A DNA stretch of 61,398 nt, the filler included, from Nemertoderma westbladi (lineage: Eukaryota; Animalia; Xenacoelomorpha): NCBI GenBank assembly GCA_032718475.1. It is 3 parts of 3 records of this genome, joined end to end, with 100 filler letters (N's around TTAATTAATTAA, not from the genome) between each part and the next. Parts side by side here need not be neighbours in the genome. Positions count along the whole stretch, not along the records: positions 1 to 31,767 come from JAUCBJ010004102.1; 2 more parts are not named here. One strand, given 5' to 3'. Of this stretch, positions 6,601 to 56,156 are shown piece by piece; the first letter of the stretch is position 1, and the number at the start of each line of letters is the position of its first letter. A model generated the notes under the pieces. The model had not been told where the DNA came from. It did not search any database and saw only the letters and a list, made by a program, of their open reading frames with translations. The translations under genes were made by a program, and so were the position numbers.

Positions 6601-7184
6601 GTCGCAGTATCGGAGACAGACCGCCGGGTTACTTTCAGCAGACTAGTTGCCCCGCAGACTGTCCCGGCGGTGCAAGGGACTGTCCCAGCCGCGCCAGTGT
6701 ACAATCAGACGACCCCTGGATACAAATGCACTGCAAACCCGACCACAAGTACGCCACAACCAACGGGGACACAAATACAACGGAGCAAATTCGTCCAATT
6801 CTCTCGGTTGGACGTCATAAAAAATCCTTAGAAAATTTAGCCCCCAGAGGTTCAGTAGCCGGGGTTAAACGTGGCCATTACGCCGACTGCGGCCTTCCAT
6901 CGAAAAACTCATTCAACCCGAACGGCGTGGAAGCTAATTTATGGTCGCCGAATCAGCGTGCAATGAAGGGCAGCTGCCCGGACATTCACAACGTAGAGAG
7001 AGACTATACACAGCGTTCTGGAACAGCTCCAAGGAAACTCCGCATACGAAACAACCCCGAATTAACTGAGGTGGACAATCCGTGGCTTAAGAAATCTGCA
7101 GCGCCATTCTACGAGCAGCGCAAACAACCAACAATCGGACCAACATCGCAGATATGTCGGCTAACCTCGAACGAGGACCACTAG
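3678..7184 (+). CDS. Protocadherin, delta-1-like architecture (signal peptide, 7 EC repeats, TM helix, ~330-aa cytoplasmic tail), single coding exon
   Basis: 1168-aa ORF with a hydrophobic N-terminus. Six DxND linkers (DINDHSP, DRNDNTP, DVNDNTP, DVNDSPP, DENDNDP, DKNDNKP), LDRE/LDFE and AxDxG motifs, a 7th EC ending ARDRGNPP, and TM LVLAMGILGSVICIVMLVLFLVVVYY. Confidence 0.95.
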   Translation: MLPFVKLFVLLALFTITAYCRVLPALHYVVEEEQPKRFKIGNLRDSFPDVGTNTQFLTAKDVTKWVEVARSGEVFTRRKLDREAECLDQDRLQPCTQELEIEVKYHKSTNSDSTMLVIELIDINDHSPEFPVRHYDAKVVESNNPNSQRIELPSATDADIGDNGVRYYELAGSGMNAFRLKTRPGAHGSPMTPVLTPAYELDREQRSSYQLVLIAMDNGSPMRTDEMRITVTIIDRNDNTPIFEQSIYRAEVGENQVKGTKVVIVKATDTDEGVNSQIRYQIANSNPDEVKEVFHIDEYDGFISTNRQLDFEHKRMYRIIVIASDHGEESSQSQTVVDVQVLDVNDNTPEITLINKVKIKENNILIVPEDIHPGTVIARVQGKDADSGINGRLDARVTAGTEYFEMVEMLANRLWLLQIKKPLDREVTPYHNITVTVSDKGNPPLRSSISLAIELTDVNDSPPKFDEDIYNFEIQENVIQRDIGSVRAIDPDLDSSGIRYFLEDNAYGSLSIDQNNGSISVIRSLDREGKYGPVLMVNVIAEDIAKEPATSTVMVNINIIDENDNDPVFIPKSAKGEIFTVYLDENTKAGTLVHNVHAEDNDEGNNGKIRYSLIDDSIGFIINENSGNLTTSKVFDRELVKAPINLIVVAQDTGFPETRSARKILKVIITDKNDNKPWISYPIRDKSYPIPRTAAIGSRVLQVKATDDDLHGNSQIVYSIISGDPEDIFGIKHQTGVLYVKNPIPKHLSGKHTLTIEARDRGNPPRWDTVPIEYEIVSKPIGNSSMIILDEFVVTTANVDPEKDGQFNLVLAMGILGSVICIVMLVLFLVVVYYKCYDNRRAYHPTKQQSKREKSGDIEGVIANGGFFGRKRDKKGKYNSDTTANRLSYTGEENHNSLSGTPMTIRGNPVHDYSTIKPNDVHVVYVPSNSRKNGPVETTCTLVPMEKSREKPDGADSNRYPMSRQNSLKRSHDGRRSIGDRPPGYFQQTSCPADCPGGARDCPSRASVQSDDPWIQMHCKPDHKYATTNGDTNTTEQIRPILSVGRHKKSLENLAPRGSVAGVKRGHYADCGLPSKNSFNPNGVEANLWSPNQRAMKGSCPDIHNVERDYTQRSGTAPRKLRIRNNPELTEVDNPWLKKSAAPFYEQRKQPTIGPTSQICRLTSNEDH

Positions 7185-9242
7185 AGAAAAAAACTAGAAA
7201 ATAAATTAAATAAATATGTGCGTAGGATATATGTGTAAATCATGATTATGTAATGGTTTATATCCCGATAACTTTTTGTATATTTATTGTATATTTTCTC
7301 ATAATTTTTTATATTTTGTCAACTAGCATTTTAGCAAGCAGCTATCTAATCGCATGCAATATTCATAAATATGCGAAAATAAAATATTTATTTTAAAGAC
7401 CTCCATCGCAAATTTAATAACAAGTTATATATATTTAATTAACGGAAAATGTGAACATGGGAGGGGATGGGAGGGGGGGGGGGGGGGCAGTAAATTAATG
7501 TCATATATTCCAGGGGATAGACGAACATTTTAAAGTAAGAAGTTTAAACATATTTATATTTTTTTATTTACAATTATTACTTTCCCTTAAAATAAATATT
7601 GGTTTATATATAGATGAGACAAGGTTGCTGGCTGCTGCTATTACTACAAAAACATATATATTTGGATTATATTATGTTCTATCGAAATTTAATACCCCGC
7701 CCGGAACCATTTTTTGAAATTATTATCAGGAAACAAATTATATTACAATTGGTGATGAATTACCAATCGTAATGTATTTTGATTGACGATAAAATTAAAT
7801 TTTGATAAAATAATAATGAATTATCATTATTATCAAAATTTAATAAACCGCGACAATATATTAACGAAGCCTGGAAAAACAGCAATTCGTTTGTTAGACT
7901 TATTATTCAGCTGAGTTAGTTAAAGTAGTTAGTTTTAAGTCAATCAATGAATGGCTCTCCAAATGTATCAATTCACTCAGAAGATTTGGATAATTTGGTT
8001 TGTAATAAAACCTGAATTATATAATAATTATTAACAATTGAAATGAAAAAATTATAAAAGTGTTCCGCGGTATAATGTAGTACATAATATACAACTTGGT
8101 ATACCAACTGAGTTTCATAATATTTCAATTATAAAATAAAATTAGGCATATCATGCTTTATAACTTTATTTTACTTTACTTGGATAGCTATAACCTGTTA
8201 CTTTATAAGGGGTAATATAACTAATTAATATTTCAGCATCATTATTGTGTATTGTATACTTTACGCTTTTTGTTCGATTACATGTTGTTGTGATACAATT
8301 ATGATGTAGGAGTTAATAATGTATTAAGTATAGAATTGTTACATAAATACAAAGGAATCCTATTTTGTACTAAAATTTTGAAGTTAATAATACCTAACAG
8401 CGACTTAAGTTTTAGATTGTGTCTAAATTGTGACCCGTGTGAATATACCTAATAAATGTGTCAAATACAATGTTATTTTACCTCTCAAAATATGTTGTAA
8501 TAATGACTTACAGCGTTTTATTTATTATAAAAATACTTCGGTTTATACGGACACACACCCATGCAGGATAATAAGGGGACTCAATAAATAAAATACTGTC
8601 TAAAAAAATAATGAATGTCAAAAAAATATATTATTTAATAGAACCTTTGTATATTACATGTAAAAGAATCGAATATTATAATTGCTGTAATATGCCAATA
8701 ATGTTGAGAGAACAAGTTGAGTCAAATGATGATAATAAATTTGGCAGGTGGAAAGCTGTCACATCAGAGAGTAGGAGAAGCTCCTAATGACCCACATATA
8801 TGGCTCGCACCCCATATACAAATCGATTGAAATCTTCCCTCGGGTTACACTTTACGGACCAGACCAGTAATATTTAACGGAGACGCCAGCATCAACCCAA
8901 CCAATGCAGGTCGTGAATTAATATGTAAATAATGACAACATTTTATGTTAATAAAGGCCTTGGTTCCAACACATGGCTTATACCACTACACATTGCGTAT
9001 CTACTCTGTCATGTTGGCCGCGATTTCTTGTGTCCTTGAGTTGTGGTAACATGTGCTACGAAGTCTCTGTGTTTTAATTAAGGAATTATATATTATTTGG
9101 CTATAATATTTAGTCAACATTGATTTATGAAATCAATAACAGTCATAGATTCGGAAAATTCACTTACAGATTTCTGTTCAAATATGTGAAGAAACTTTAT
9201 GGTTGGTGGATCAATGGTGACTAAAAACTCAACAAAATAAAT

Positions 9243-9366
9243 ACTGGACTGGACTGGACTGGACTGGACTGGACTGGACTGGACTGGACTGGACTGGACT
9301 GGACTGGACTGGACTGGACTGGACTGGACTGGACTGGACTGGACTGGACTGGACTGGACTGGACTG
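9243..9366. repeat. (ACTGG)n pentanucleotide microsatellite, ~25 copies
   Basis: Perfect ggactggact run. Confidence 0.97.
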
Positions 9367-10058
9367 GGAAACCTTCCGATCAGCTGATCTCTAACTTTAA
9401 TAAATGCAACTTCTGTTTTTGGTTCGCAAGAATATACAAGATAGTTAGGCTGCGTGGGATTTTACTGTGTTTGAGTAAAAAATACAGACGTGATTCATTA
9501 ACAAAATGAAATGAATACCAATTTTCCAAACCACAACCAGGTAACTGGAGTGTGTGTCGACTGCGTGCGGACGTGGAGTAATTTCAATTGATGGCACGAC
9601 TCAGATAGATAGATTACCTGTGTAAGGGTATACCTCTTCCCATCGGTCAATCGCTAGCTACGCTAACTGAAAACAGTAACGAAAATGGACAGTACGGTAA
9701 AGCAGGGGGTAAACCAACGTCACCTGGGGAATTAGTCAAAAACGCACAACCTGAATACAAATAAGTTGAGGCAATTGCTTGCTGTAAGGGGTGCCAAGAC
9801 ACAGGGCCTATTACTGTGACAAGGGGAACATTATACCTCGTTGTATGTATGCGTGTCTGTCTGTGGGTAAAAGGTTTGCCTTTTAAAATAAGAAAAAGTG
9901 TTACTAATGGCCTATTGTAATTAAATTATACCGTGAGCCATCTTCCTAAAATCGAATTAACATTCGCAGAATCTCTGCAGAATTCTGAATCAATATTCGT
10001 CTATTTGTGCTGTTATCAATACAATTAAACGATAGAATGTAACGACATGCTGACTTAA

Positions 10059-10165
10059 GGGGATTCTGGTACATGATGGTACATCATGGGATTCTGTTAC
10101 ATATTATGGTACATAATGGGATTCTGGTACATATGATGGTACATCATGGGATTCTGGTACATATG
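10059..10165. repeat. ~29-30-bp minisatellite (GGGATTCTGGTACATATGATGGTACATCAT), ~3.5 copies
   Basis: Tandem copies read directly. Confidence 0.85.
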
Positions 10166-11574
10166 AGGTGATCAATAAAATTAATCGTGTTATAAGACGA
10201 AATTGCCGTTTCTGGCTAATTATTGTTCCCCATTGAAATTTAACATCCTTATACGCACAATATGTCAGTTTAAAGCAAAAGTGCGAAGTAAAGCTTAACC
10301 TTTCATAAAGAAACTAAAATCTCACATGTGTTTCACCATAAAAAAAAAGTTGTTATGTATTTAAGGGTCATATAAAATGACTGTCCGAAATGATGTCACA
10401 TTACGATATTATTATTAACGGAAATCCAAAACTATTTCTAAGAAAATACGATCATAAAATAATTACGGAATATCAATAATGCCCAACAAATAATATTTGT
10501 TAATGAGTTTTTTATTACTTTTTTGTACGTGTTTTATACGGGTATGTTATGAAGCCGACAAATTCTACTCGCAATTAAAATTATTTGCGAAGCAAAGAAA
10601 GCTTCCGAATCTATTCGAGTAGTTGGCATACGTAATTAAAGATATGAAGTGAATATAATACAGTAACTATATGCAGATATAATTGTAATATATCGATATT
10701 TCGCAGTCAATCAGCCCATAATAAGGGCGCTATACTAGCCAAGCGCATAATAGTGTTCCTTTCAGGAAAAAACCCCTTAATGGAACAATAATAATTGAGT
10801 GCAGATTTATCTCACTCAACCTTGCTTCTCAGAATCACCACAGGTGATTAAAGCGTTTCACGAGCTATCGAGTTGAGCGCAGACGGCCCATTAATAATCT
10901 TGTAAAAATATAAATAATAATGGGGGAGTGCAAATATATATGAGCATCGGTGACAAACATACGGCCGCTATGCTGGCCAGAGAACATTCAAGGCCGTGTA
11001 TGTCACCAGGTCGGGGAGGGGGGGGGGGGGGGGGGGGGATGCATGCGGTCCGAGTGAATAAATAATAACCAGTCCAAACTTCATTTCCCAAACTTCCTGT
11101 CCCATAAGCAGAAAACCAACAATTACGAGCTGTCAGCTACTACAGCTCTCATTTAAACACCTAATCCCAAACACAAGGTCGCGGGTATTCTTATTATTAT
11201 TATTACATGAAGAAATCGCTTGAGAAATTCATATATTTTTTGAAAAAAAAAACAGTTTGATTTGAAAGAGCTAAGCAGTTCTGGCTCAGCTCAATGCCAA
11301 CTACTTACTGCAAGAACGATGACAGCTTAATAAATAAGTCATAAAACCGGCAGAAATTAAATAACAGGATATTAAAAAATGTTACCAACCCATCACTCAA
11401 CGCAAACAAGTTACTGTAATCAGTCAGTTCTAACTTATGTGGTTGTTCTAATTTACAAATTATTGATAGTATCAATGTGTTGGCAAGCTGTATTTTTCGA
11501 GGTGTTTGTTATTATACATTTATTATAGGAAGGGATCTAGGGGTCTTTACCTCGAATGATAAGTTTATTTTACC

Positions 11575-11939
11575 GAAAATAACTTATCTTTTATTGGCGC
11601 AATTGTAGGACTAATCCCATCACATGCGTTCTTTTTAACCGGGTAGTGTACAAATTTAAGAATCGCGTATTTTTTCTTGAAATTAATATCTCATATCTCT
11701 CCAAACCACGTACGCGTTTCGACCTTACTGGGTCTCATCAGCGTGGTGTCGGATTCGAACCTGGGACCTCGAGGTGGAAGCCGAGACTACAACCACAAGG
11801 TCACAGGTTCTTGAGATATGGAGTATTAATTTCAAAGCCAGCTGCCATTTTATTAGCCCCTGATTTTTTGATTATTGATAGTATCTGATATTGATGGGAT
11901 TAGTCCTACAATTGCGCCAATAAAAGATAAGTTATTTTC
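11575..11939. mobile_element. Inverted-repeat-bounded element (48-bp perfect IR) enclosing a tRNA-derived SINE head
   Basis: 11575-11622 gaaaataacttatc...cccatca is the reverse complement of 11892-11939. Confidence 0.75.
11745..11804 (-). mobile_element. tRNA-derived SINE head or tRNA pseudogene
   Basis: Minus strand reads gtgaccttgtggttgtagtctcggcttccacctcgaggtcccaGGTTCGAATCCgacacc: canonical B box, a TTCCA-containing anticodon-like loop, poor acceptor stem. Confidence 0.65.
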
Positions 11940-14900
11940 TAATTTACAGTAACGGTTAGTTCTAACTCATGTGGTTGTTCTAATTTACTGTAACAGTCAG
12001 TTCTAACTTATGTGGTTGTTCTAATTTACTGTAACAGTCAGTTCTAACTCATGTGGTTGTTCTAATTTACTGTAACAGTCAGTTCTAACTTATGTGGATG
12101 TTCTAATTTACTGTAACAGTTAGTTCTAACTCATGTGGTTGTTCTAATTTACTGTAACAGTCAGTTCTAACTTATGTGGTTGTTCTAATTTACTGAAACA
12201 GTCAGTTCTAACTTATGTGGATGTTCTAATTTACTGTAACAGTTAGTTCTAACTCATGTGGTTGTTCTAATTTACTGTAACAGTCAGTTCTAACTTATGT
12301 GGTTGTTCTAATTTACTGTAACAGTCAGTTCTAACTTATGTGGTTGTTCTAATTTACTGTAACAGTCAGTTCCAACTCATGTGGTTGTTCTAATTTACTG
12401 TAACAGTCAGTTCTAACTTATGTGGATGTTCTAATTTACTGTAACAGTTAGTTCTAACTCATGTGGTTGTTCTAATTTACTGTAACAGTCAGTTCTAACT
12501 TATGTGGTTGTTCTAATTTACTGTAACAGTCAGTTCTAACTCATGTGGTTGTTCTAATTTACTGTAACAGTCAGTTCTAACTCATGTGGTTGTTCTAATT
12601 TACTGTAACAGTCAGTTCTAACTTATGTGGATGTTCTAATTTACTGTAACAGTTAGTTCTAACTCATGTGGTTGTTCTAATTTACTGTAACAGTCAGTTC
12701 TAACTTATGTGGTTGTTCTAATTTACTGTAACAGTCAGTTCTAACTTATGTGGTTGTTCTAATTTACTGTAACAGTCAGTTCCAACTCATGTGGTTGTTC
12801 TAATTTACTGTAACAATCAGTTCTAACTCATGTGGTTGTTCTAATTTACTGTAACCGTCAGTTCTAACTCATGTGGTTGTTCTAATTTACTGTAACAGTC
12901 AGTTCTAACTTATGTGGTTATTCTAATTTACTGTAACAGTCAGTTCTAACTTATGTGGTTGTTCTAATTTATTGTAACAGTTAGCTCTAACTTATGTGGT
13001 TGTTCTAATTTACTGTAACAGTCAGTTCTAACTCAGGTGGTTGTTCTAATTTACTGTAACAGTCAGTTCTAACTTATGTGGATGTTCTAATTTACTGTAA
13101 CAGTCGGTTCTAACTTATGTGGTTGTTCTAATTTACTGTAACAGTCAGTTCCAACTCATGTGGTTGTTCTAATTTACTGTAACAGTCAGTTCTAACTCAT
13201 GTGGTTGTTCTAATTTACTGTAACAGTCAGTTCTAACTCATGTGGTTGTTCTAATTTACTGTAACAGTCAGTTCTAACTTATGTGGATGTTCTAATTTAC
13301 TGTAACAGTTAGTTCTAACTCATGTGGTTGTTCTAATTTACTGTAACAGTCAGTTCCAACTCATGTGGTTGTTCTAATTTACTGTAACAGTCAGTTCTAA
13401 CTTATGTGGATGTTCTAATTTACTGTAACAGTTAGTTCTAACTCATGTGGTTGTTCTAATTTACTGTAACAGTCAGTTCTAACTTATGTGGTTGTTCTAA
13501 TTTACTGTAACAGTCAGTTCTAACTCATGTGGTTGTTCTAATTTACTGTAACAGTCAGTTCTAACTCATGTGGTTGTTCTAATTTACTGTAACAGTCAGT
13601 TCTAACTTATGTGGATGTTCTAATTTACTGTAACAGTTAGTTCTAACTCATGTGGTTGTTCTAATTTACTGTAACAGTCAGTTCTAACTTATGTGGTTGT
13701 TCTAATTTACTGTAACAGTCAGTTCTAACTTATGTGGTTGTTCTAATTTACTGTAACAGTCAGTTCCAACTCATGTGGTTGTTCTAATTTACTGTAACAA
13801 TCAGTTCTAACTCATGTGGTTGTTCTAATTTACTGTAACCGTCAGTTCTAACTCATGTGGTTGTTCTAATTTACTGTAACAGTCAGTTCTAACTTATGTG
13901 GTTATTCTAATTTACTGTAACAGTCAGTTCTAACTTATGTGGTTGTTCTAATTTATTGTAACAGTTAGCTCTAACTTATGTGGTTGTTCTAATTTACTGT
14001 AACAGTCAGTTCTAACTCAGGTGGTTGTTCTAATTTACTGTAACAGTCAGTTCTAACTTATGTGGATGTTCTAATTTACTGTAACAGTCGGTTCTAACTC
14101 ATGTGGTTGTTCTAATTTACTGTAACAGTCAGTTCTAACTCATGTGGTTGTTCTAATTTACTGTAACAGTCAGTTCTAACTCATGTGGTTGTTCTAATTT
14201 ACTGTAACAGTCAGTTCTAACTCAGGTGGTTGTTCTAATTTACTGAAACAATCAGTTCTAACTTATGTGGTTGTTCTAATTTACTGTAACAGTCGGTTCT
14301 AACTCATGTGGTTGTTCTAATTTACTGTAACAGTCAGTTCTAACTCATGTGGTTGTTCTAATTTACTGTAACAGTCAGTTCTAACTCATGTGGTTGTTCT
14401 AATTTACTGTAACAGTCAGTTCTAACTCAGGTGGTTGTTCTAATTTACTGAAACAATCAGTTCTAACTTATGTGGTTGTTCTAATTTACTGTAACAGTCG
14501 GTTCTAACTCATGTGGTTGTTCTAATTTACTGTAACAGTCAGTTCTAACTCATGTGGTTGTTCTAATTTACTGTAACAGTCAGTTCTAACTCATGTGGTT
14601 GTTCTAATTTACTGTAACAGTCAGTTCTAACTCATGTGGTTGTTCTAATTTACTGTAACAGTCAGTTCTAACTCATGTGGTTGTTCTAATTTACTGTAAC
14701 AGTCAGTTCTAACTCAGGTGGTTGTTCTAATTTACTGAAACAATCAGTTCTAACTTATGTGGTTGTTCTAATTTACTGTAACAGTCGGTTCTAACTCATG
14801 TGGTTGTTCTAATTTACTGTAACAGTCAGTTCTAACTTATGTGGATGTTCTAATTTACTGTAACAGTCGGTTCTAACTCATGTGGTTGTTCTAATTTACT

Positions 14901-16846
14901 GTAACAGTCAGTTCTAACTCATGTGGTTGTTCTAATTTACTGTAACAGTCAGTTCTAACTCATGTGGTTGTTCTAATTTACTGTAACAGTCAGTTCTAAC
15001 TCAGGTGGTTGTTCTAATTTACTGAAACAATCAGTTCTAACTTATGTGGTTGTTCTAATTTACTGTAACAGTCGGTTCTAACTCATGTGGTTGTTCTAAT
15101 TTACTGTAACAGTCAGTTCTAACTCATGTGGTTGTTCTAATTTACTGTAACAGTCAGTTCTAACTCATGTGGTTGTTCTAATTTACTGTAACAGTCAGTT
15201 CTAACTTATGTGGATGTTCTAATTTACTGTAACAGTCAGTTCTAACTCATGTGGTTGTTCTAATTTACTGTAACAGTCAGTTCTAACTTATGTGGATGTT
15301 CTAATTTACTGTAACAGTCGGTTCTAACTCATGTGGTTGTTCTAATTTACTGTAACAGTCAGTTCTAACTCATGTGGTTGTTCTAATTTACTGTAACAGT
15401 CAGTTCTAACTCATGTGGTTGTTATAATTTACTGTAACAGTCAGTTCTAACTTATGTGGATGTTCTAATTTACTGTAACAGTCGGTTCTAACTCATGTGG
15501 TTGTTCTAATTTACTGTAACAGTCAGTTCTAACTCATGAGGTTGTTCTAATTTACTGTAACAGTCAGTTCTAACTCATGTGGTTGTTCTAATTTACTGTA
15601 ACAGTCGGTTCTAACTCATGTGGTTGTTCTAATTTACTGTAACAGTCAGTTCTAACTCATGTGGTTGTTCTAATTTACTGTAACAGTCAGTTCTAATTCA
15701 TGTGGTTGTTCTAATTTACTGTAACAGTCAGTTCTAACTCATGTGGTTGTTCTAATTTACTGTAACAGTCAGTTCTAACTCATGTGGTTGTTCTAATTTA
15801 CTGTAACAGTCAGTTCTAACTCAGGTGGTTGTTCTAATTTACTGAAACAATCAGTTCTAACTTATGTGGTTGTTCTAATTTACTGTAACAGTCGGTTCTA
15901 ACTCATGTGGTTGTTCTAATTTACTGTAACAGTCAGTTCTAACTCATGTGGTTGTTCTAATTTACTGTAACAGTCAGTTCTAACTCATGTGGTTGTTCTA
16001 ATTTACTGTAACAGTCAGTTCTAACTCATGTGGTTGTTCTAATTTACTGTAACAGTCAGTTCTAACTCATGTGGTTGTTCTAATTTACTGTAACAGTCAG
16101 TTCTAACTCAGGTGGTTGTTCTAATTTACTGAAACAATCAGTTCTAACTTATGTGGTTGTTCTAATTTACTGTAACAGTCGGTTCTAACTCATGTGGTTG
16201 TTCTAATTTACTGTAACAGTCAGTTCTAACTCATGTGGTTGTTCTAATTTACTGTAACAGTCAGTTCTAACTCATGTGGTTGTTCTAATTTACTGTTTCT
16301 AATTTACAGTAACAGTCAGTTCTAACTCATGTGGTTGTTCTAATTTACTGTAACAATCAGTTCTAACTTATGTGGTTGTTATAATTTACTGTAACAGTCA
16401 GTTCTAACTCATGTGGTTGTTCTAATTTACTGTAACAGTCAGTTCTAACTTATGTGGTTGTTCTAATTTACTGTAACAATCAGTTCTAACTTATGTGGTT
16501 GTTATAATTTACTGTAACAGTCAGTTCTAACTCATGTGGTTATTCTAATTTACTGTAACAGTCAGTTCTAACTTATGTGGTTGTTCTAATTTACTGTAAC
16601 AATTAGTTCTAACTTATGTGGTTGTTATAATTTACAGTAACAGTCAGTTCTAACTTATGTGGTTATTCTAATTTACTGTAACAGTCAGTTCTAACTTATG
16701 TGGTTGTTCTAATTTACTGTAACAATTAGTTCTAACTTATGTGGTTGTTATAATTTACTGTAACAGTCAGTTCTAACTCATGTGGTTGTTCTAATTTACT
16801 GTAACAGTCAGTTCTAACTCATGTGGTTATTCTAATTTACTGTAAT
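11937..16846. repeat. Satellite A: 41-bp unit CTGTAACAGTCAGTTCTAACT(C/T)ATGTGGTTGTTCTAATTTA, ~120 copies
   Basis: Period of 41 checked (ttctaac at 12001 and 12042). One detached unit lies at ~11411-11457. Confidence 0.98.
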
Positions 16847-17756
16847 GAACACTAACGAAACTATTCTGTTGAGGTTGCGGTACACTGTGGACATCCCCCC
16901 TCCCCCAGGGTTCTATGTACAGCCAATGGCCCATAACTTTGGTTCAAGTCGATATTATTAAATACTAGCTGACAATACCCGAGGCGGGTTACCCCGTATT
17001 TCCCGATAATTGTATTGCTAGCTAGGCTTACCTAATGCAGAATGTAGTACCATTAATGTGTACGGTAATTCAAAAAACCGAGCCGGTACCGGTTCCGCCA
17101 AAATTGGCAATAACCGGTACCGAACGTGAATTAAACTTTTCGAAAAGTGGCCTATAATGAGCGCTCTTAAAGTTATTCACACATGCCAAGTCCCAGCGCA
17201 ATCCCTCCGCCCGTTATGGGGGGAATTCGAGCACAACAGAGAAACTTATTGGAATTACACAAAAATATTAATAGATAGCGATAGGCCACCATACAGCTGG
17301 GATATAGGCGTTCAAGATGGCAAGAATTATCGTAGCTGCCTTTTATTCTATTTAACAAAAATATACACAACATTCTGGAATATTTTAATTATGTGTGTGT
17401 AGCTATACGCAATACAGATATTGTGTAGTCACATCGTCGTTGCCCATAGATATTCATGAGATATCTAAAACGTTCCAGAACGGTGTGTACTTATCAAATA
17501 TAATATGGCCTCCAAAGAACGAAAATTCTTGCAATCTTCGAACGCATATCAGCTGTTTTTCAACAAAATTCAGATATTGTTTGCAATTATTGCAAATCTT
17601 TCTAATTATATATAAAATAAAAATCACGACTAATGTGAAGAATGCCACGACATGGCGAGTGCAATGATCCCTGAACGGACAAACAGATAGGCCTATTAGC
17701 TACCGGTACCCTGGCGGATGCGTCCTTAAATTGGGCACAGATTTGCTAAGTCGGCA

Positions 17757-17844
17757 ATGACGTCCAGGTGGGATCGAACTGGTGACCTCCGGGTTGGAAG
17801 TCTGACACTCTAACCACCATTCAGCTAGTGGCTCAGGTAAAAGG
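17757..17844 (-). mobile_element. tRNA-derived SINE head, left inverted copy
   Basis: Near reverse complement of 18089-18179; contains GGATCGAAC, the reverse of the B box. Confidence 0.7.
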
Positions 17845-18088
17845 TAGACCTGGAAATACTTCATGATATGATGCCTTGTATGTCCGCAATTTACCTCCTC
17901 ATGGCCTCCCATCTGTCAATACCATAATTATACAATTATTAAAGAGTATGGGAACCAGGGGTCTATCTCCCTTTAAATCTTTAACTCCAAACTCTTTAAT
18001 AATTACAATGAACAACTCCCTTAAGACGGCGTGTCGGCAAACCCGATAATTATACAATATTATGTCAATACGTAGTATTTCCAAGTCT

Positions 18089-18179
18089 CCTTTTACCTGA
18101 GCCTGAGCAGCTAGCTGAATGGTTAGAGTATCAGACTTCCAACCCGGAGGTCACCAGTTCGATCCCACCTGGAAGTCAT
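18089..18179 (+). mobile_element. tRNA-derived SINE head, right copy
   Basis: A-box-like TAGCTGAATGGT, loop acttccaa, B-box-like GTTCGATCC. Confidence 0.7.
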
Positions 18180-18750
18180 AACTGACTTTGCCAAGCTGCG
18201 CCCAACAAAAGTTATAATAATATAAAAACCACCCATTCACACAAAACACCAACAAGACGTCCTTTAAACCAACCAGCTAACCGTAATCAGCAGTCAGCTC
18301 ACTGGAAGCTTCCATTCTGCGGTCAATCTATTCCAATTCCGAACGAAATGCGGTGCTAAACATAAGTTTGCAAAGCTACAAATATGACCGCAAATTACAC
18401 CAGTGTACAGTAGTATATGAACGCGGCAAGGATTACTTATAGCAAAGTTGTCCTAGGATCACGGTCATTGAACGTAGGCCATTATTAGTAAGAAAAAGTT
18501 GGATTAAAAAAAGTTGTATTATATACAACCAATGTAATTGAAGATAAAAGTCCTAGGAAAATAATAGTCCTTTGTTTCCACTTCCATTCATGTACATACA
18601 TCTAGTAATTGTAGGACAAATAAAAGAAAACACACTTAATTTAGAAACACCCGTTATAAATAGTTCCACCGGGACATTTAGTGAAATAATAATTAATTAT
18701 TACATAGGAATAAAAGTAGAAACTGCTCTTTCTAAAAATAATTAGAATAC

Positions 18751-18906
18751 AGAATAATTATTTATTGAATGGTAAATAACGTGGAACATATTTTCACTAT
18801 ACGCTCTCGATTCTTTATTAACCTCGTTACGCTCGGTAAATAAAATATCTCGAGTATAGTGAAAATAATGTTCTACATTATTTACCATGCAATAAATATT
18901 TATTCT
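18751..18906. mobile_element. Short fold-back (hairpin) element
   Basis: Imperfect palindrome: atttattgaatggtaaataa...ttttcactatac versus gtatagtgaaaa...ttatttaccatgcaataaat, with centre cctcgttacgctcgg. Confidence 0.7.
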
Positions 18907-19260
18907 TCATTTGGATGGAGTTTACAGCATTGGTAATAAAAAAAAAAAGGTTAGAATGTTTCAACATTGGTTCTCCATCCAGTTCTATTGTACAGATAGG
19001 ATTAGAAATTTGAAAAATACAATAAGATATTTTACAATTTTTTATCAAATACTAAAATTTCATCACAACTGATGGTATTTATAAATCATAGGTGCAGTGT
19101 TTTTTGGATTTTAATCCACTCCAGATAACAAAATTATATAAAACAACTTAAAATATCGAATTTTTAAAAGCATTCACACAATTTTGGAACAAACAGCCTC
19201 TCATCTCTCACTATATGCACTAATCTGTTGTTACCTGGCAACGTCGTTACTGGTACTTAC

Positions 19261-19455
19261 CCACATCCAACACGTCGCCCTTAGGTTGGTCTGCGTTCAC
19301 CGTTTGGTAAACGGAAGAGTAACTCTCCAATAGACCATCGACATTACGGTGATATTCAATGAGACGGGAAACGATCCCCTCAGAGTGGCTGTCCTCGACC
19401 AATCTCTGTTCAACTGACGGATCAGCTGGCCAATCAAACGTCGTATGGTACACGT
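19261..19455 (-). CDS. AK8: AK8-like exon (lid region to end of the first adenylate kinase domain), phase 1-1
   Basis: attag|AC GTG TAC... encodes (D)VYHTTFDWPADPSVEQRL...LIEYHRNVDGLLESYSSVYQTVNADQPKGDVLDV, then G|gtaagt. Matches recalled AK8 motifs YHTTFDWP, EYHRN and ADQP. Confidence 0.9.
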
Positions 19456-20374
19456 CTAATAGAGTAAAATATTAGAATTAGATATATAGCAAGTATATAA
19501 GTATATAAGTATATAAGTATAGTATATAATTAGAATATATAACGATTTAAAACGATACTGAAACTGTAACTTAAAATTATATTGAAATTTTTGTAACATT
19601 AATTTACAGATTTAATATACGTAAAAAAAACTTCACGATTTAAAATAAACAACTGTATGATTATCATATTTGTAATTTACGATGTACGCATTTCGGCCTC
19701 CCGGATAAAAAGAAAAAAATAATTATTTACAACCCGGCGGCAAAGACCCTCATAGACCAATTTAATACTTTCAAAATTTGTTTTGAATTTTGAAATTTTT
19801 GTAATTATTTCAGTAGATTATTTCAGTTATTCCACAGCAGTACCGGAATATTGTTAAAAGAAATTGAGAAAAATATACCGCTTACTGTAACTAGAATAAA
19901 CGCAATTCCACATTTTGAATAATCTCATATGGTAAACTGTAACTAAAATCGAATCAAGATGCGATAGCAAACTAAAGAGGTAACTGTAAGATAAATTATT
20001 TAGATTTTATTTCAGTTACAACAATTTTTGTTCGGTTAAATGGGGCATTGGAGATATCGGGGAGAAATAGGAAAAAAACTACCGCAACTAAACAAACTCG
20101 GGTGCCGTATAAGATATTGAATTGATTAAGTAAATTATATACTTAACGTGACGTCAAAAATGAAATTAGAATCCAAAGATGCTTATTGAGCAATAAAAAA
20201 AACCACAAAAAAAAATAAAAAACACAAATCCGCGGCAAAAAAACATAAGAATTAAAAAACACAGATCGCCTGCAAAATATAAAAAATAATTAAGACCAAT
20301 AAATTAAAACCCGGCTAATTATTCTAAAACATTGATTCACAAATATTAAAACATTCGATAATAACATAACTAAC

Positions 20375-20528
20375 CCCCAGTCTCGGGGTCTACCCTTTTG
20401 CCTTCTTGTCTCTCGACAAGAACGCTATCCGGAGCTTCTAGAAGTACTACATGCTTCGCTAAGATACCAATCCTCTGAAGGGCTTGAGCTTCAGGGCGTG
20501 AGTGAGGCATACCGTCGAGCAACCAACC
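20375..20528 (-). CDS. AK8: AK8-like exon, phase 0-1 (not called as such in the ORF track)
   Basis: ttttag|GGTTGG... 154 nt encodes GWLLDGMPHSRPEAQALQRIGILAKHVVLLEAPDSVLVERQEGKRVDPETG, then G|gttagt. Contains the adenylate kinase GWxLDGxP motif and the AK8-type APDxVLxERxxGKRxDPxTG motif. Confidence 0.92.
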
Positions 20529-20600
20529 CTAAAACATACCGGTAATGAGTTAGGTATAAGGATAGTAAACAAAACATAGAACAGGATGAGTTAGGTATAA

Positions 20601-21214
20601 GGGGCCGTGCACAAATGATGCCACGCTTTTTTTTGACGATTTTCGACCACCCCCCCCCCCCCCCCCTCCCCCCTCTGTCACAATCTGTCACGAATATTGT
20701 AACCCCCATCCCCCCTTGAACGTCACGTCACAAAAAAAACCCAGTATAGTTAATAAAAACTGTTAAATTTTAAATTATTTTGTTATTAAAACTAAATGTT
20801 AAAACTTCATTAATTCAGCTGTACACAATGACTAAACAAAGTAAGACACCCCACATAATCACTCCCATGGGAATGACGACATCTTAGTGGACAAGTGGAC
20901 CAGGTATACGATCGACTATTGTGCCACTTCCTGGGTCTAACTCTACCTCGTCCTTATCTACCCAGTCAATGTGATGTCCTTCATCTTTATCGCCACTTAG
21001 AATTAACACTTTATCACCTCGATTCGCGATTACTTGAATAGATTTCACTTTGGCTGTTGATGTTGGTGTTATGTATTTTATTTGTTCACCAAAGTGCTAT
21101 TGTGACGTCACAAGTATAGCAACCCCCCCCCCCCCCGCCCCCATGTCAGAAATTATCACAAAATTGCCAACCCCATCTCCCCCTTCGACTGTGACATTAT
21201 TTATGCACGGCCCC
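20601..21214. mobile_element. PIF/Harbinger-type MITE
   Basis: TIRs GGGGCCGTGCA...TGCACGGCCCC with a 3-bp TAA target duplication (20598-20600, 21215-21217). Inserted into the ggtaTAAggtac site of a satellite B unit. Confidence 0.88.
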
Positions 21215-24200
21215 TAAGGTACAATAACCAACCCTGAAACAGAATGAGTTAGGTATAAGGTACAATAACCAACCCTGAAACAGAATGAGTTAGGTATAAG
21301 GTACAATAACCAACCCTAAAACAGAATGAGTTAGGTATAAGGTACAACAACCAACCCTAAAACAGAATGAGTTAGGTATAAGGTACAACAACCAACCCTA
21401 AAACAGAATGAGTTAGGTATAAGGTACAACAACCAACCCTAAAACAGAATGAGTTAGGTATAAGGTACAATAACCAACCCTAAAACAGAATGAGTTAGGT
21501 ATAAGGTACAATAACCAACCCTAAAACAGAATGAGTTAGGTATAAGGTACAATAACCAACCCTAAAACAGAATGAGTTAGGTATAAGGTACAACAACCAA
21601 CCCTAAAACAGAATGAGTTAGGTATAAGGTACAACAACCAACCCTAAAACAGAATGAGTTAGATATAAGGTACAATAACCAACCCTAAAAGAGAATGAGT
21701 TAGGTATAAGGTACAACAACCAACCCTAAAACAGAATGAGTTAGGTATAAGGTACAACAACCAACCCTAAAACAGAATGAGTTAGGTAAGGTACAATAAC
21801 CAACCCTAAAACAGAATGAGTTAGGTATAAGGTACAATAACCAACCCTAAAACAGAATGAGTTAGGTATAAGGTACAATAACCAACCCTAAAACAGAATG
21901 AGTTAGGTATAAGGTACAACAACCAACCCTAAAACAGAATGAGTTAGGTATAAGGTACAATAACCAACCCTAAAACAGAATGAGTTAGGTATAAGGTACA
22001 ACAACCAACCCTAAAACAGAATGAGTTAGGTATAAGGTACAACAACCAACCCTAAAACAGAATGAGTTAGGTATAAGGTACAATAACCAACCCTAAAACA
22101 GAATGAGTTAGGTATAAGGTACAATAACCAACCCTAAAACAGAATGAGTTAGGTATAAGGTACAATAACCAACCCTAAAACAGAATGAGTTAGGTATAAG
22201 GTACAACAACCAACCCTAAAACAGAATGAGTTAGGTATAAGGTACAACAACCAACCCTAAAACAGAATGAGTTAGATATAAGGTACAATAACCAACCCTA
22301 AAAGAGAATGAGTTAGGTATAAGGTACAACAACCAACCCTAAAACAGAATGAGTTAGGTATAAGGTACAACAACCAACCCTAAAACAGAATGAGTTAGGT
22401 AAGGTACAATAACCAACCCTAAAACAGAATGAGTTAGGTATAAGGTACAATAACCAACCCTAAAACAGAATGAGTTAGGTATAAGGTACAATAACCAACC
22501 CTAAAACAGAATGAGTTAGGTATAAGGTACAACAACCAACCCTAAAACAGAATGAGTTAGGTATAAGGTACAATAACCAACCCTAAAACAGAATGAGTTA
22601 GGTATAAGGTACAACAACCAACCCTAAAACAGAATGAGTTAGGTATAAGGTACAACAACCAACCCTAAAACAGAATGAGTTAGGTATAAGGTACAACAAC
22701 CAACCCTAAAACAGAATGAGTTAGGTATAAGGTACAACAACCAACCCTGAAACAGAATGAGTTAGGTATAAGGTACAATAACCAACCCTAAAACAGAATG
22801 AGTTAGGTATAAGGTACAACAACCAACCCTAAAACAGAATGAGTTAGGTATAAGGTACAACAACCAACCCTAAAACAGAATGAGTTAGGTATAAGGTACA
22901 ATAACCAACCCTAAAACAGAATGAGTTAGGTATAAGGTACAATAACCAACCCTAAAACAGAATGAGTTAGGTATAAGGTACAATAACCAACCCTAAAACA
23001 GAATGAGTTAGGTATAAGGTACAACAACCAACCCTAAAACAGAATGAGTTAGGCATAAGGTACAATAACCAACCCTAAAACAGAATGAGTTAGGTATAAG
23101 GTACAATAACCAACCCTAAAACAGAATGAGTTAGGTATAAGGTACAATAACCAACCCTAAAACAGAATGAGTTAGGTATAAGGTACAACAACCAACCCTA
23201 AAACAGAATGAGTTAGATATAAGGTACAATAACCAACCCTAAAAGAGAATGAGTTAGGTATAAGGTACAACAACCAACCCTAAAACAGAATGAGTTAGGT
23301 ATAAGGTACAACAACCAACCCTAAAACAGAATGAGTTAGGCATAAGGTACAATAACCAACCCTAAAACAGAATGAGTTAGGTATAAGGTACAACAACCAA
23401 CCCTAAAACAGAATGAGTTAGGTATAAGGTACAATAACCAACCCTAAAACAGAATGAGTTAGGTATAAGGTACAATAACCAACCCTAAAACAGAATGAGT
23501 TAGGTATAAGGTACAACAACCAACCCTAAAACAGAATGAGTTAGGTATAAGGTACAACAACCAACCCTAAAACAGAATGAGTTAGGTATAAGGTACAATA
23601 ACCAACCCTAAAACAGAATGAGTTAGGTATAAGGTACAATAACCAACCCTAAAAGAGAATGAGTTAGGTATAAGGTACAACAACCAACCCTAAAACAGAA
23701 TGAGTTAGGTATAAGGTACAATAACCAACCCTAAAACAGAATGAGTTAGGTATAAGGTACAATAACCAACCCTAAAAGAGAATGAGTTAGGTATAAGGTA
23801 CAACAACCAACCCTAAAACAGAATGAGTTAGGTATAAGGTACAACAACCAACCCTAAAACAGAATGAGTTAGGTAAGGTACAATAACCAACCCTAAAACA
23901 GAATGAGTTAGGTATAAGGTACAACAACCAACCCTAAAACAGAATGAGTTAGGTATAAGGTACAACAACCAACCCTAAAACAGAATGAGTTAGGTATAAG
24001 GTACAACAACCAACCCTAAAACAGAATGAGTTAGGTATAAGGTACAACAACCAACCCTAAAACAGAATGAGTTAGGTAAGGTACAATAACCAACCCTAAA
24101 AGAGAATGAGTTAGGTATAAGGTACAACAACCAACCCTAAAACAGAATGAGTTAGGTATAAGGTACAACAACCAACCCTAAAACAGAATGAGTTAGGTAA

Positions 24201-27200
24201 GGTACAATAACCAACCCTAAAACAGAATGAGTTAGGTATAAGGTACAACAACCAACCCTAAAACAGAATGAGTTAGGTATAAGGTACAATAACCAACCCT
24301 AAAACAGAATGAGTTAGGTATAAGGTACAACAACCAACCCTAAAACAGAATGAGTTAGGTACAAGGTACAACAACCAACCCTAAAACAGAATAAGTTAGG
24401 CATAAGGTACAATAACCAAAACCAACCCTAAAACAGAATGAGTTAGGTATAAGGTACAACAACCAACCCTAAAACAGAACGAGTTAGGTATAAGGTACAA
24501 CAACCAACCCTAAAACAGAATGAGTTAGGTATAAGGTACAACAACCAACCCTAAAACAGAATGAGTTAGGTAAGGTACAATAACCAACCCTAAAACAGAA
24601 TGAGTTAGGTATAAGGTACAATAACCAACACTAAAACAGAATGAGTTAGGTATAAGGTACAACAACCAACCCTAAAACAGAATAAGTTAGGTATAAGGTA
24701 CAACAACCAACCCTAAAACAGAATGAGTTAGGTATAAGGTACAATAACCAACCCTAAAACAGAATGAGTTAGGTATAAGGTACAACAACCAACCCTAAAA
24801 CAGAATGAGTTAGGTATAAGGTACAACAACCAACCCTAAAACAGAATGAGTTAGGTATAAGGTACAACAACCAACCCTAAAACAGAATGAGTTAGGTATA
24901 AGGTACAACAACCAACCCTAAAACAGAATGAGTTAGGTATAAGGTACAACAACCAACCCTAAAACAGAATGAGTTAGGTATAAGGTACAATAACCAACCG
25001 AAAACATAATGAGTTAGGCATAAGGTACAATAACCAACCCTTAAACAGAATGAGTTAGGTATAAGGTACAATAACCAACCCTCAAACAGAATGAGTTAGG
25101 TATAAGGTACAACAACCAACCCTAAAACAGAATGAGTTAGGTATAAGGTACAACAACCAACCCTAAAACAGAATGAGTTAGGTATAAGGTACAACAACCA
25201 ACCCTAAAACAGAATGAGTTAGGTATAAGGTACAACAACCAACCCTAAAACAGAATGAGTTAGGTATAAGATACAACAACCAACCCTAAAACAGAATGAG
25301 TTAGGGATAAGGTACAATAACCAACCCTAAAACAGAATGATTTAGGTATAAGGTACAATAACCAACCCTAAAACAGAATGAGTTAGGTATAAGGTACAAT
25401 AACCAACCCTAAAACATAATGAGTTAGGTATAAGGTACAACAACCAACCCTAAAACAGAATAAGTTAGGCATAAGGTACAATAACCAAAACCAACCCTAA
25501 AACAGAATGAGTTAGGTACAAGGTACAACAACCAACCCTAAAACAGAATAAGTTAGGCATAAGGTACAATAACCAAAACCAACCCTAAAACAGAATGAGT
25601 TAGGTACAAGGTACAACAACCAACCCTACAACATAATGAGTTAGGCATAAGGTACAATAACCAACCCTTAAACAGAATGAGTTAGGTATAAGGTACAACA
25701 ACCAACCCTAAAACAGAATGAGTTAGGTACAAGGTACAACAACCAACCCTTAAACAGAATGAGTTAGGTATAAGGTACAACAACCAACCCTAAAACAGAA
25801 TGAGTTAGGTATAAGGTACAACAACCAACCCTAAAACAGAATAAGTTAGGCATAAGGTACAATAACCAAAACCAACCCTAAAACAGAATGAGTTAGGTAC
25901 AAGGTACAACAACCAACCCTAAAACATAATGAGTTAGGCATAAGGTACAATAACCAACCCTTAAACAGAATGAGTTAGGTATAAGGTACAACAACCAACC
26001 CTAAAACAGAATGAGTTAGGTATAAGGTACAATAACCAACCCTAAAACAGAATGAGTTAGGTATAAGGTACAACAACCAACCCTAAAACAGAATGAGTTA
26101 GGTATAAGGTACAACAACCAACCCTAAAACAGAATGAGTTAGGTATAAGGTACAATAACCAACCCTAAAACAGAATGAGTTAGGTATAAGATACAATAAC
26201 CAACCCTAAAACAGAATGAGTTAGGTATAAGGTACAACAACCAACCCTAAAACAGAATGAGTTAGGTATAAGGTACAATAACCAACCCTAAAACAGAATG
26301 AGTTAGGTATAAGGTACAATAACCAACCCTAAAACAGAATGAGTTAGGGATAAGGTACAATAACCAACCCTAAAACAGAATGAGTTAGGTATAAGGTACA
26401 ACAACCAACCCTAAAACAGAATGAGTTAGGTATAAGGTACAACAACCAACCCTAAAACAGAATGAGTTAGGTATAAGGTACAATAACCAACCCTAAAACA
26501 GAATGAGTTAGGGATAAGGTACAATAACCAACCCTAAAACAGAATGATTTAGGTATAAGGTACAATAACCAACCCTAAAACAGAATGAGTTAGGTATAAG
26601 GTACAATAACCAACCCTAAAACAGAATGAGTTAGGTATAAGGTACAATAACCAACCCTAAAACAGAATGAGTTAGGTATAAGGTACAATAACCAACCCTA
26701 AAACAGAATGATTTAGGTATAAGGTACAATAACCAACCCTAAAACAGAATGAGTTAGGTATAAGGTACAATAACCAACCCTAAAACAGAATGAGTTAGGT
26801 ATAACGTACAATAACCAACCCTAAAACAGAATGAGTTAGGTATAAGGTACAATAACCAACCCTAAAACAGAATGAGTTAGGTATAAGGTACAATAACCAA
26901 CCCTAAAACAGAATGAGTTAGGTATAAGGTACAACAACCAACCCTAAAACAGAATGAGTTAGGCATAAGGTACAATAACCAACCCTAAAACAGAATGAGT
27001 TAGGTATAAGGTACAATAACCAACCCTAAAACAGAATGAGTTAGGTATAAGGTACAATAACCAACCCTAAAACAGAATGAGTTAGGTATAAGGTACAATA
27101 ACCAACCCTAAAACAGAATGAGTTAGGTATAAGGTACAATAACCAACCCTAAAACAGAATGAGTTAGGTATAAGGTACAACAACCAACCCTAAAACAGAA

Positions 27201-30200
27201 TGAGTTAGGTATAAGGTACAATAACCAACCCTAAAACAGAATGAGTTAGGTATAAGGTACAATAACCAACCCTAAAACAGAATGAGTTAGGTATAAGGTA
27301 CAATAACCAACCCTAAAACAGAATGAGTTAGGTATAAGGTACAATAACCAACCCTAAAACAGAATGAGTTAGGTATAAGGTACAACAACCAACCCTAAAA
27401 CAGAATGAGTTAGGCATAAGGTACAATAACCAACCCTAAAACAGAATGAGTTAGGTATAAGGTACAATAACCAACCCTAAAACAGAATGAGTTAGGTATA
27501 AGGTACAATAACCAACCCTAAAACAGAATGAGTTAGGTATAAGGTACAATAACCAACCCTAAAACAGAATGAGTTAGGTATAAGGTACAATAACCAACCC
27601 TAAAACAGAATGAGTTAGGTATAAGGTACAACAACCAACCCTAAAACAGAATGAGTTAGGTATAAGGTACAATAACCAACCCTAAAACAGAATGAGTTAG
27701 GTATAAGGTACAATAACCAACCCTAAAACAGAATGAGTTAGGTATAAGGTACAATAACCAACCCTAAAACAGAATGAGTTAGGTATAAGGTACAATAACC
27801 AACCCTAAAACAGAATGAGTTAGGTATAAGGTACAATAACCAACCCTAAAACAGAATGAGTTAGGTATAAGGTACAACAACCAACCCTAAAACAGAATGC
27901 AGTTAGGGATAAGGTACAATAACCAACCCTAAAACAGAATGAGTTAGGTATAAGGTACAACAACCAACCCTAAAACAGAATGAGTTAGGTATAAGGTACA
28001 ATAACCAACCCTAAAACAGAATGAGTTAGGTATAAGGTACAATAACCAACCCTAAAACAGAATGAGTTAGGTATAAGGTACAACAACCAACCCTAAAACA
28101 GAATGAGTTAGGTATAAGGTACAATAACCAACCCTAAAACAGAATGAGTTAGGTATAAGGTACAACAACCAACCCTAAAACAGAATGAGTTAGGTAAGGT
28201 ACAATAACCAACCCTAAAACAGAATGAGTTAGGTATAAGGTACAATAACCAACCCTAAAACAGAATGAGTTAGGTATAAGGTACAACAACCAACCCTAAA
28301 ACAGAATGAGTTAGGTATAAGGTACAATCCAACCAACCCTAAAACAGAATGAGTTAGGTATAAGGTACAACAACCAACCCTAAAACAGAATGAGTTAGGT
28401 ATAAGGTACAATAACCAACCCTAAAACAGAATGAGTTAGGTATAAGGTACAACAACCAACCCTAAAACAGAATGAGTTAGGTATAAGGTACAATAACCAA
28501 CCCTAAAACAGAATGAGTTAGGTATAAGGTACAACAACCAACCCTAAAACAGAATGAGTTAGGTATAAGGTACAACAACCAACCCTAAAACAGAATGAGT
28601 TAGGTATAAGGTACAACAACCAACCCTAAAACAGAATGAGTTAGGTATAAGGTACAACAACCAACCCTAAAACAGAATGAGTTAGGTATAAGGTACAATC
28701 AACCAACCCTAAAACAGAATGAGTTAGGTATAAGGTACAACAACCAACCCTAAAACAGAATGAGTTAGGTATAAGGTACAATAACCAACCCTAAAACAGA
28801 ATGAGTTAGGTATAAGGTACAACAACCAACCCTAAAACAGAATGAGTTAGGTATAAGGTACAATAACCAACCCTAAAACAGAATGAGTTAGGTATAAGGT
28901 ACAACAACCAACCCTAAAACAGAATGAGTTAGGTATAAGGTACAATAACCAACCCTAAAACAGAATGAGTTAGGTATAAGGTACAACAACCAACCCTAAA
29001 ACAGAATGAGTTAGGTATAAGGTACAATAACCAACCCTAAAACAGAATGAGTTAGGTATAAGGTACAACAACCAACCCTAAAACAGAATGAGTTAGGTAT
29101 AAGGTACAACAACCAACCCTAAAACAGAATGAGTTAGGTATAAGGTACAACAACCAACCCTAAAACAGAATGAGTTAGGTATAAGGTACAACAACCAACC
29201 CTAAAACAGAATGAGTTAGGTATAAGGTACAACAACCAACCCTAAAACAGAATGAGTTAGGTATAAGGTACAATAACCAACCCTAAAACAGAATGAGTTA
29301 GGTATAAGGTACAACAACCAACCCTAAAACAGAATGAGTTAGGTATAAGGTACAATAACCAACCCTAAAACAGAATGAGTTAGGTATAAGGTACAACAAC
29401 CAACCCTAAAACAGAATGAGTTAGGTATAAGGTACAATAACCAACCCTAAAACAGAATGAGTTAGGTATAAGGTACAACAACCAACCCTAAAACAGAATG
29501 AGTTAGGTATAAGGTACAACAACCAACCCTAAAACAGAATGAGTTAGGTATAAGGTACAACAACCAACCCTAAAACAGAATGAGTTAGGTATAAGGTACA
29601 ATAACCAACCCTAAAACAGAATGAGTTAGGTATAAGGTACAATAACCAACCCTAAAACAGAATGAGTTAGGTATAAGGTACAACAACCAACCCTAAAACA
29701 GAATGAGTTAGGTATAAGGTACAACAACCAACCCTAAAACAGAATGAGTTAGGTATAAGGTACAATAACCAACCCTAAAACAGAATGAGTTAGGTATAAG
29801 GTACAACAACCAACCCTAAAACAGAATGAGTTAGGTATAAGGTACAATAACCAACCCTAAAACAGAATGAGTTAGGTATAAGGTACAACAACCAACCCTA
29901 AAACAGAATGAGTTAGGTATAAGGTACAATAACCAACCCTAAAACAGAATGAGTTAGGTATAAGGTACAATAACCAACCCTAAAACAGAATGAGTTAGGT
30001 ATAAGGTACAATAACCAACCCTAAAACAGAATGAGTTAGGTATAAGGTACAACAACCAACCCTAAAACAGAATGAGTTAGGTATAAGGTACAATAACCAA
30101 CCCTAAAACAGAATGAGTTAGGTATAAGGTACAACAACCAACCCTAAAACAGAATGAGTTAGGTATAAGGTACAACAACCAACCCTAAAACAGAATGAGT

Positions 30201-30966
30201 TAGGTATAAGGTACAACAACCAACCCTAAAACAGAATGAGTTAGGTATAAGGTACAACAACCAACCCTAAAACAGAATGAGTTAGGTATAAGGTACAACA
30301 ACCAACCCTAAAACAGAATGAGTTAGGTATAAGGTACAATAACCAACCCTAAAACAGAATGAGTTAGGTATAAGGTACAATAACCAACCCTAAAACAGAA
30401 TGAGTTAGGTATAAGGTACAATAACCAACCCTAAAACAGAATGAGTTAGGTATAAGGTACAACAACCAACCCTAAAACAGAATGAGTTAGGTATAAGGTA
30501 CAATAACCAACCCTAAAACAGAATGAGTTAGGTATAAGGTACAATAACCAACCCTAAAACAGAATGAGTTAGGTATAAGGTACAACAACCAACCCTAAAA
30601 CAGAATGAGTTAGGTATAAGGTACAATAACCAACCCTAAAACAGAATGAGTTAGGTATAAGGTACAATAACCAACCCTAAAACAGAATGAGTTAGGTATA
30701 AGGTACAACAACCAACCCTAAAACAGAATGAGTTAGGTATAAGGTACAACAACCAACCCTAAAACAGAATGAGTTAGGTATAAGGTACAACAACCAACCC
30801 TAAAACAGAATGAGTTAGGTATAAGGTACAATAACCAACCCTAAAACAGAATGAGTTAGGTATAAGGTACAACAACCAACCCTAAAACAGAATGAGTTAG
30901 GTATAAGGTACAACAACCAACCCTAAAACAGAATGAGTTAGGTATAAGGTACAACAACCAACCCTA
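21215..30966. repeat. Satellite B: 41-bp unit AAGGTACAA(T/C)AACCAACCCTAAAACAGAATGAGTTAGGTAT, ~237 copies, inside an AK8 intron
   Basis: Homogeneous tandem array, ~9750 bp / 41. Degenerate units at 20520-20600 overlap the exon boundary. Confidence 0.98.
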
Positions 30967-31202
30967 CATTTAAAAATATTTCATAAAATACTCCAAGATA
31001 CTATGATAAAAAAAAGTAGCACTTTCTTTAGACTTTACTTATGTTAACATCACTTTCGGGGTGCCCGATTGTTTCTACTCTACTGGCAGAGCGACGCGAG
31101 ACAAGTAAAATAAAGTGCTGTTCTCGAATAAAATGTAGGTGAATAATAAGTCATTTATAAAGTGAAATCTATATACTACAGAACTAATGTAGATTAACCC
31201 AC

Positions 31203-31385
31203 TCGCTTTACGCAATCGTCGCATTCAATTCGATTTTTAACAAGATCAGCCCAAACTTCGGGTGGAACTTCTTTGCCGCTCTCAATAAGTTCCTTCGCAT
31301 CCTCTCCGGTATCAGTGGCATCGTCCGCCAAGATTGTCTCCCGTGTAAGGTAAACAGTTCGCAATCGTTTACATATAAGTCGAGA
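31203..31385 (-). CDS. AK8: AK8-like exon, phase 0-0 (not in the ORF track)
   Basis: gacag|TCT... 183 nt encodes SRLICKRLRTVYLTRETILADD...KEVPPEVWADLVKNRIECDDCVKR, then |gtgggt. Joins in frame to GWLLDG (compare recalled AK8 ...EEDCIKQ-GWILDG). Confidence 0.88.
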
Positions 31386-55774: not shown

Positions 55775-56156
55775 TATCGGGTCCCTTACTAGTCCGCAGT
55801 ACCGAGGGGCGCGTGGTTTATTACAGCCAATGAGACTGAAGTAATATCCCTTATATATTTATTGCCCGCCTCCGGTTCGTTTCTTTTAATGATATTTTTT
55901 TAAACATAAGAATATTTATATCAGTTTCCAGTTGTTCCCGCTCATTAAATAGTAACATTTTTTAATACAGTAACATACAGGCGTAATGTAAATTTTGGGT
56001 TTATAATATCATGGCCCATAGCAGCTTGATTACAGATAACATATGTATAAAAATGTTAGACAGCTTAATAATCTTACTGAATTGGTATTCATCATTTATA
56101 TAGATTAGCATAGATGACTAGGATTAATTCATTGGTACTGGTACTAAAGTAGAGCG

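Follow-up and report, generated by a model that had tools for sequence, protein, structure and literature searches.

Splice-site mimicry is tolerable within an intron: in the adenylate kinase 8 (AK8) gene of Nemertoderma westbladi, about 236 near-perfect copies of the 3' splice site take up 9.75 of the 10.7 kb of a single intron, and the normal junction is still made at the last acceptor, at position 20529. With moderate confidence, we explain this locus by a duplication of the intron/exon boundary that grew into a minisatellite, in which the last copy is chosen by exon definition and the 6 nt that distinguish the used acceptor from the copies are later and secondary. Positions are those of the window, i.e. 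the whole stretch of 61,398 nucleotides that was analysed. The relevant features, in transcript order from the donor to the used acceptor and beyond, are as follows.

Positions 31203 to 31385, minus strand: AK8 exon covering about aa 74-134, followed by the donor GTGGGT (tblastn/HMM; 3' end from a loose end in run X4, 5' end by homology only).
Positions 30967 to 31202, minus strand: 236 nt of unique sequence that open the intron; the two pseudo-acceptors here, at 31082 and 31079, have canonical spacing and are skipped.
Positions 30955 to 30966, minus strand: 12 nt at which the array begins on its 5' side; TAG and nine bases of exon start, they repeat the real junction without a change and are preceded by AT-rich sequence.
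Positions 21215 to 30966, minus strand: 41-bp tandem array of 237.5 copies, each unit combining a CCTAAC that resembles a branch site with a pyrimidine stretch, an AG and GGTTGGTTR (the G-W-L codons of the exon).
Positions 20601 to 21214, no strand assigned: MITE-like element of 614 bp, high-copy, with GGGGCCGTGCA inverted ends and a TAA duplication, inserted into a unit.
Positions 20562 to 20600, minus strand: diverged unit beside the real site, 30/41 identical to the array unit, lacking the AG (TAT) and the 6 nt.
Positions 20529 to 20561, minus strand: used 3' splice site with a putative branch A at 20550 and 21-nt spacing (motif and X4 spliced contig).
Positions 20537 to 20544, no strand assigned: palindrome TACCGGTA accounting for the extra 6 nt (alignment to the array unit).
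Positions 20375 to 20528, minus strand: AK8 exon of 154 nt, aa 135-186, starting with G-W-L (homology and X4 contig).
Positions 19261 to 19455, minus strand: next AK8 exon, about aa 186-250, with the donor GTAAGT (homology only).

The translation of the 154-nt exon matches Pfam ADK, and its top PDB match is adenylate kinase 8 (E 6.7e-21), with a sponge AK8 as the top database match. Per-segment HMMs found none of the remaining AK8 exons (aa 1-73 and 253-479) in the window, over 19 kb downstream (1-19260) and 30 kb upstream (right of 31385); these exons may be missing from the assembly, or the gene may extend across its neighbours, and two N-containing gaps lie to the right of the array. The intron between the exons at 31203 and 20528 measures 10,674 nt, and its position is presumably old and common to human AK8. 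Use of the last acceptor is evident from contig 25 of run X4, which spans exactly 20375-20528 with zero differences and whose loose end behind 20528 corresponds to window positions 31203-31232 in the upstream exon, the whole array being skipped. Despite its label 'DNA?', we read X4 as RNA because its POP4 sequence has a poly(A) tail as well as a GT..AG joint. The normal junction is the only AK8 junction seen in the X4 contigs; this support comes from one RNA run and one contig, and assembled contigs lose rare forms, so rare use of the copies is possible. For two array units in the stretch compared, X4 has no contig cover, which is absent cover and not evidence. The acceptor behaves as U2-type, with the GT donor (GTGGGT) joined to the AG in frame and the K-R|G-W frame in agreement with homologues. 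U12-type introns carry an RTATCCTT donor and a TCCTTAAC branch site; this class was considered and rejected for the AK8 intron, whose donor is GTGGGTTA and which has only a partial TCCTTATAC upstream.

The array has a period of 41 with 96% matches throughout, far beyond chance. On the minus strand, positions 20529-20549 read ctcattaccggtatgttttag, which places 21 nt from the A of CCTAAC (20550) through the AG, while the array units read ctcattctgttttag, with 15 nt over the same interval. Among the 237 AGGGTTGG sites on the minus strand of 20400-31200 (the real site and 236 upstream of it), 231 have CTAAC at 15 nt and 227 carry TTTTAG. The difference between a 21-nt spacing at the real site and a 15-nt spacing in the array, which had been claimed in an earlier note on this DNA, is thus borne out by the coordinates and by the count over all 237 sites. 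Assignment of the branch A at 20550 is motif-based and putative, with further yUnAy motifs lying 17, 28 and 37 nt from the AG of the real site. Spacing is also not the sole difference between the real site and the copies, as there is a TA/TC change adjoining the 6 nt, divergent sequence from +10 on, other upstream context, and a donor near the real site but none near the copies. The 21-nt form is present in a second sample too (an X3 contig, 341 letters over 342 places), in which no 15-nt allele was seen. In the same X3 data, the AG-less diverged unit (20562-20602) was observed in tandem at a depth of 457 versus 23 for a single-copy contig; the second sample may hold an array of such AG-less units, summed contig depths not being taken as copy numbers. 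Metagenome contigs gave 0 exact matches to the array unit pattern.

Under the favoured explanation, the 41-bp unit would have arisen locally by duplication of the AK8 intron/exon boundary, and the array would have grown by unequal exchange or slippage. The unit aligns to the real junction including 9 exon nt, and it carries the codons of G135 (120/120 aligned homologues) and W136 (115/120). Because of these codons, we infer that the unit is a copy of protein-constrained exon sequence, a local boundary origin being the simplest reading. A smaller event of this kind is described in PMC7490669 for human CBS c.844_845ins68: 52 intron nt and 16 exon nt are duplicated, splicing takes the downstream copy, and the protein is left unharmed. 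Both loci carry a tandem intron end, AG and exon start with use of the downstream copy, which for AK8 is read from the one contig of the one RNA run. In contrast to the one 68-bp copy in CBS, the 41-bp unit at AK8 is present about 237 times, and the AK8 intron further has a MITE, a spacer unit devoid of AG and the 6-nt difference in spacing. Introns gained through tandem or segmental duplication (PMC3265369, PMC4974935) resemble AK8 in that splicing absorbs duplicated splice-signal sequence; however, they make a new intron, whereas at AK8 an existing intron is lengthened.

Selection of the last copy would then depend on exon definition, the copies losing since they have no nearby donor or exon, helped by the short spacing and by a predicted hairpin over the branch site. 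A scan for donor motifs over 20300-31000 returned 5 sites, of which 2 lie in the array, one at its edge and the other in one variant unit. The real site is 154 nt from the real donor, as opposed to 859 nt for the nearest intact copy, which the MITE-like insertion places about 700 nt from the real site. This element presumably belongs to a PIF/Harbinger- or Zator-like family. The decoy frame reaches a stop after 35 codons (105 nt), and rare use of a copy would thereby lead to likely nonsense-mediated decay. Exon definition combined with nonsense-mediated decay is the likely, predicted arrangement at AK8.

The extra bases at the used site appear as a single 6-nt gap when it is aligned to a unit, converting TA to TACCGGTA. 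With the arrays masked, TACCGGTA occurs 13 times in the window against 0.6-1.0 expected, making it the top over-represented 8-mer after G/C runs, and TAGGCCTA occurs 10 times against 0.3-0.5 expected; at one site in the window TACCGGTA is doubled. Since this motif is so strongly over-represented, the 6 nt were probably inserted later and the 21-nt form is probably derived; the 6 nt would have been inserted at a TA by whatever process spreads TACCGGTA across the genome. The TA form with 15-nt spacing is found at three upstream AG sites, and the adjacent diverged unit likewise lacks the 6 nt. If the insertion was indeed later, a 15-nt acceptor may therefore once have worked at this position. On the opposite polarity, a C stands both in the array and in the neighbouring diverged unit at a place where the real site reads A, and for this reason a single deletion in the first duplicate would be as parsimonious as one insertion. 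Empty-like counterparts were found in the window at the AK8 acceptor alone, namely the array units, and none of the other TACCGGTA or TAGGCCTA sites (22 tested in the window) gave a convincing copy without the insert.

As to source, the 6 nt possibly derive from an insertion process active genome-wide, such as a transposon excision footprint. A +6 footprint takes the form TA-NNNN-TA. The AK8 insert has TA duplicated around a few fixed bases, a pattern that recurs in the window, in the manner of Tc1/mariner-type footprints. According to PMC12632400, Tc1/mariner excision at TA leaves +4 footprints (TATGTA, TACATA), which like TACCGGTA consist of a few bases and a second TA at a TA dinucleotide, but the AK8 insert is +6. 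A TA-targeting element with matching CC..GG ends was not found in the window. Literature searches for TACCGGTA and TAGGCCTA returned nothing relevant by title among the best 20 of 791 matches. Over the whole window, the palindromic 8-mers TACCGGTA, TAGGCCTA and TTCTAGAA are about 15-30x over-represented, and two similar local repeats at 32628 and 32760 have TACCGGTA and TAGGCCTA at the matching place. The insert at AK8 also creates a donor-like GTATGT (20534-20539, minus strand), 11 nt before the real exon start.

With regard to origin, it is possible, if on the unlikely side, that the acceptor came from the repeat. In that case the AG at the 5' end of the array would be the original one, and the insertion of a short sequence, accompanied by a 12-nt target duplication at the start of the exon, would have provided a better branch site and displaced it, turning an intron of about 239 nt into one of 10.7 kb. 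Such a history is consistent with the occurrence of the same 12 nt (TAG and 9 exon nt) at either end of the repeats and with AT-rich intron-like sequence before the 5' one, whose place at the array end makes an older acceptor or a target-site-like duplication possible. However, by our own estimate a random left boundary hits such a 3-nt window about 3 times in 41, and the 5'-most AG is pyrimidine-poor (8/17) and lacks a good branch motif. Since this alternative is about origin, it is compatible with boundary duplication followed by exon definition.

A different question is whether the spacing itself determines which acceptor is used. In humans, AGs about 12-18 nt past the branch point are sterically disfavoured and an AG moved into this zone is less used, and cryptic 3' splice sites in SF3B1 mutants lie 13-17 nt from the branch point, as given in PMC4358997. 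The AG of each AK8 copy, 15 nt past its best branch motif, falls in this protected zone and could hence be weakened; yet in the human case described there the AG competes with a nearby canonical AG for one branch point, whereas each AK8 copy has its own putative motif. It is unlikely, in our estimate, that spacing is the switch, with 15 nt lying in the hindered zone of the spliceosome and the 21-nt site, as the sole usable one, letting the array grow. The uniform contrast of 15 versus 21 nt, the occurrence of the 21-nt form in both DNA samples examined, and the human 12-18-nt zone, in which the placing of an AG lowered its use in earlier reporter work cited in PMC4358997, all speak for it, and the 15-nt spacing could suffice alone. 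Against it, each array unit has a second yUnAy (CTTAT) 22 nt from the AG beside the CTAAC at 15 nt, CTAAT lies at both 16 and 22 nt in the next AK8 intron, the insert resembles a genome-wide event, and canonically spaced pseudo-acceptors are passed over as well.

Such pseudo-acceptors, defined as YAG with >=11/17 pyrimidines (at least 11) and a yUnAy at 18-40 nt, number 90 over the 39,325 nt of minus strand outside the arrays; the array-bearing AK8 intron contains 2, both skipped, and the next intron 2 more. At five other acceptor-like sites in the window, few and ambiguous, several candidate branch motifs each are found at 9-29 nt, including 16 nt, and a second RNA comparison added one clear acceptor (POP4) and one beside a poly-C run. 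The proposal in the earlier note that short spacing may make the copies poor acceptors is partly supported: the site at 20529 is the used acceptor, and 15 nt lies inside the human hindered zone. Short spacing is neither needed nor isolated as the cause; it is a plausible, putative contributor to skipping and likely not its main reason. Nor does the locus provide the clean natural experiment on minimum branch distance that had been envisaged, spacing being confounded with exon context, donor distance and predicted folding. The spacing limit is already known from human work, so that the AK8 locus is a striking example and not a new rule, unless the 6 nt are the switch.

A combination of these elements is quite unlikely, namely that a splice-site duplication was repaired by a 6-nt scar left by a transposon, which shifted the last AG beyond the hindered zone and exposed its branch site, so that this copy became the sole good acceptor and the array could grow unchecked. 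Were this scar reading true, 236 short-spaced acceptors would have grown inside a conserved ciliary gene. Improbable, too, is RNA structure as the switch, by which the branch A of a unit would pair with the unit's own GGTTGG and that of the real site would be more open. When folding was predicted at 18 and 37 C with two pairing spans (60 and 150), the mean probability of the branch A being unpaired was 0.01-0.06 in 15 sampled units versus 0.37-0.79 at the real site; but the folds are weak (about -10 kcal/mol) and uncontrolled by shuffling, individual units rise to 0.5-0.7 when the span is longer, and the AG is predicted to be paired in the real site and the units alike. Removal of the 6 nt in silico lowered the openness from 0.76 to 0.29 at span 60, and at span 150 hardly changed it (0.37 to 0.40 at 37 C, 0.47 to 0.34 at 18 C). 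That splicing goes to the copies at an appreciable rate, the array damping AK8 output via nonsense-mediated decay, is very improbable: 236 upstream AGs with pyrimidines of 13/17 versus 11/17 at the real site and an early stop in the decoy frame would fit, but a downstream donor is required, the array has almost none, and the normal junction is the sole AK8 junction seen.

Narrow literature searches turned up no description of an array of splice acceptors, which does not prove that none exists. The AK8 locus offers a substrate for testing exon definition against branch spacing and RNA structure in a non-model animal.

The window holds a second 41-bp tandem array of about 120 units at 11937-16845; next to it are a 48-bp inverted repeat (11575-11622 / 11892-11939) and an orphan partial copy at 11408-11456. 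A relationship between this array and that in AK8 was considered and rejected on a dinucleotide-shuffle p of 0.2 for the commonest units, a mononucleotide shuffle of one unit pair from both arrays giving 0.03. A hAT-like transposase remnant (DUF4371, zinc finger) lies at 34657-38861 on the minus strand, and inside its long open frame is a 24-bp array of 128 copies (35582-38685). The last exon of POP4 (46215-46730, plus strand) is spliced and polyadenylated in X4; a POP4 protein search gave no match at 1e-15. Also on the plus strand are an open frame of 422 codons that contains a 21-bp repeat and matches nothing in Pfam (40771-42039), a protocadherin-like single large exon (3630-7184), an intronless Arf (55184-55774) and an MRM3-like methyltransferase (56148-58010).
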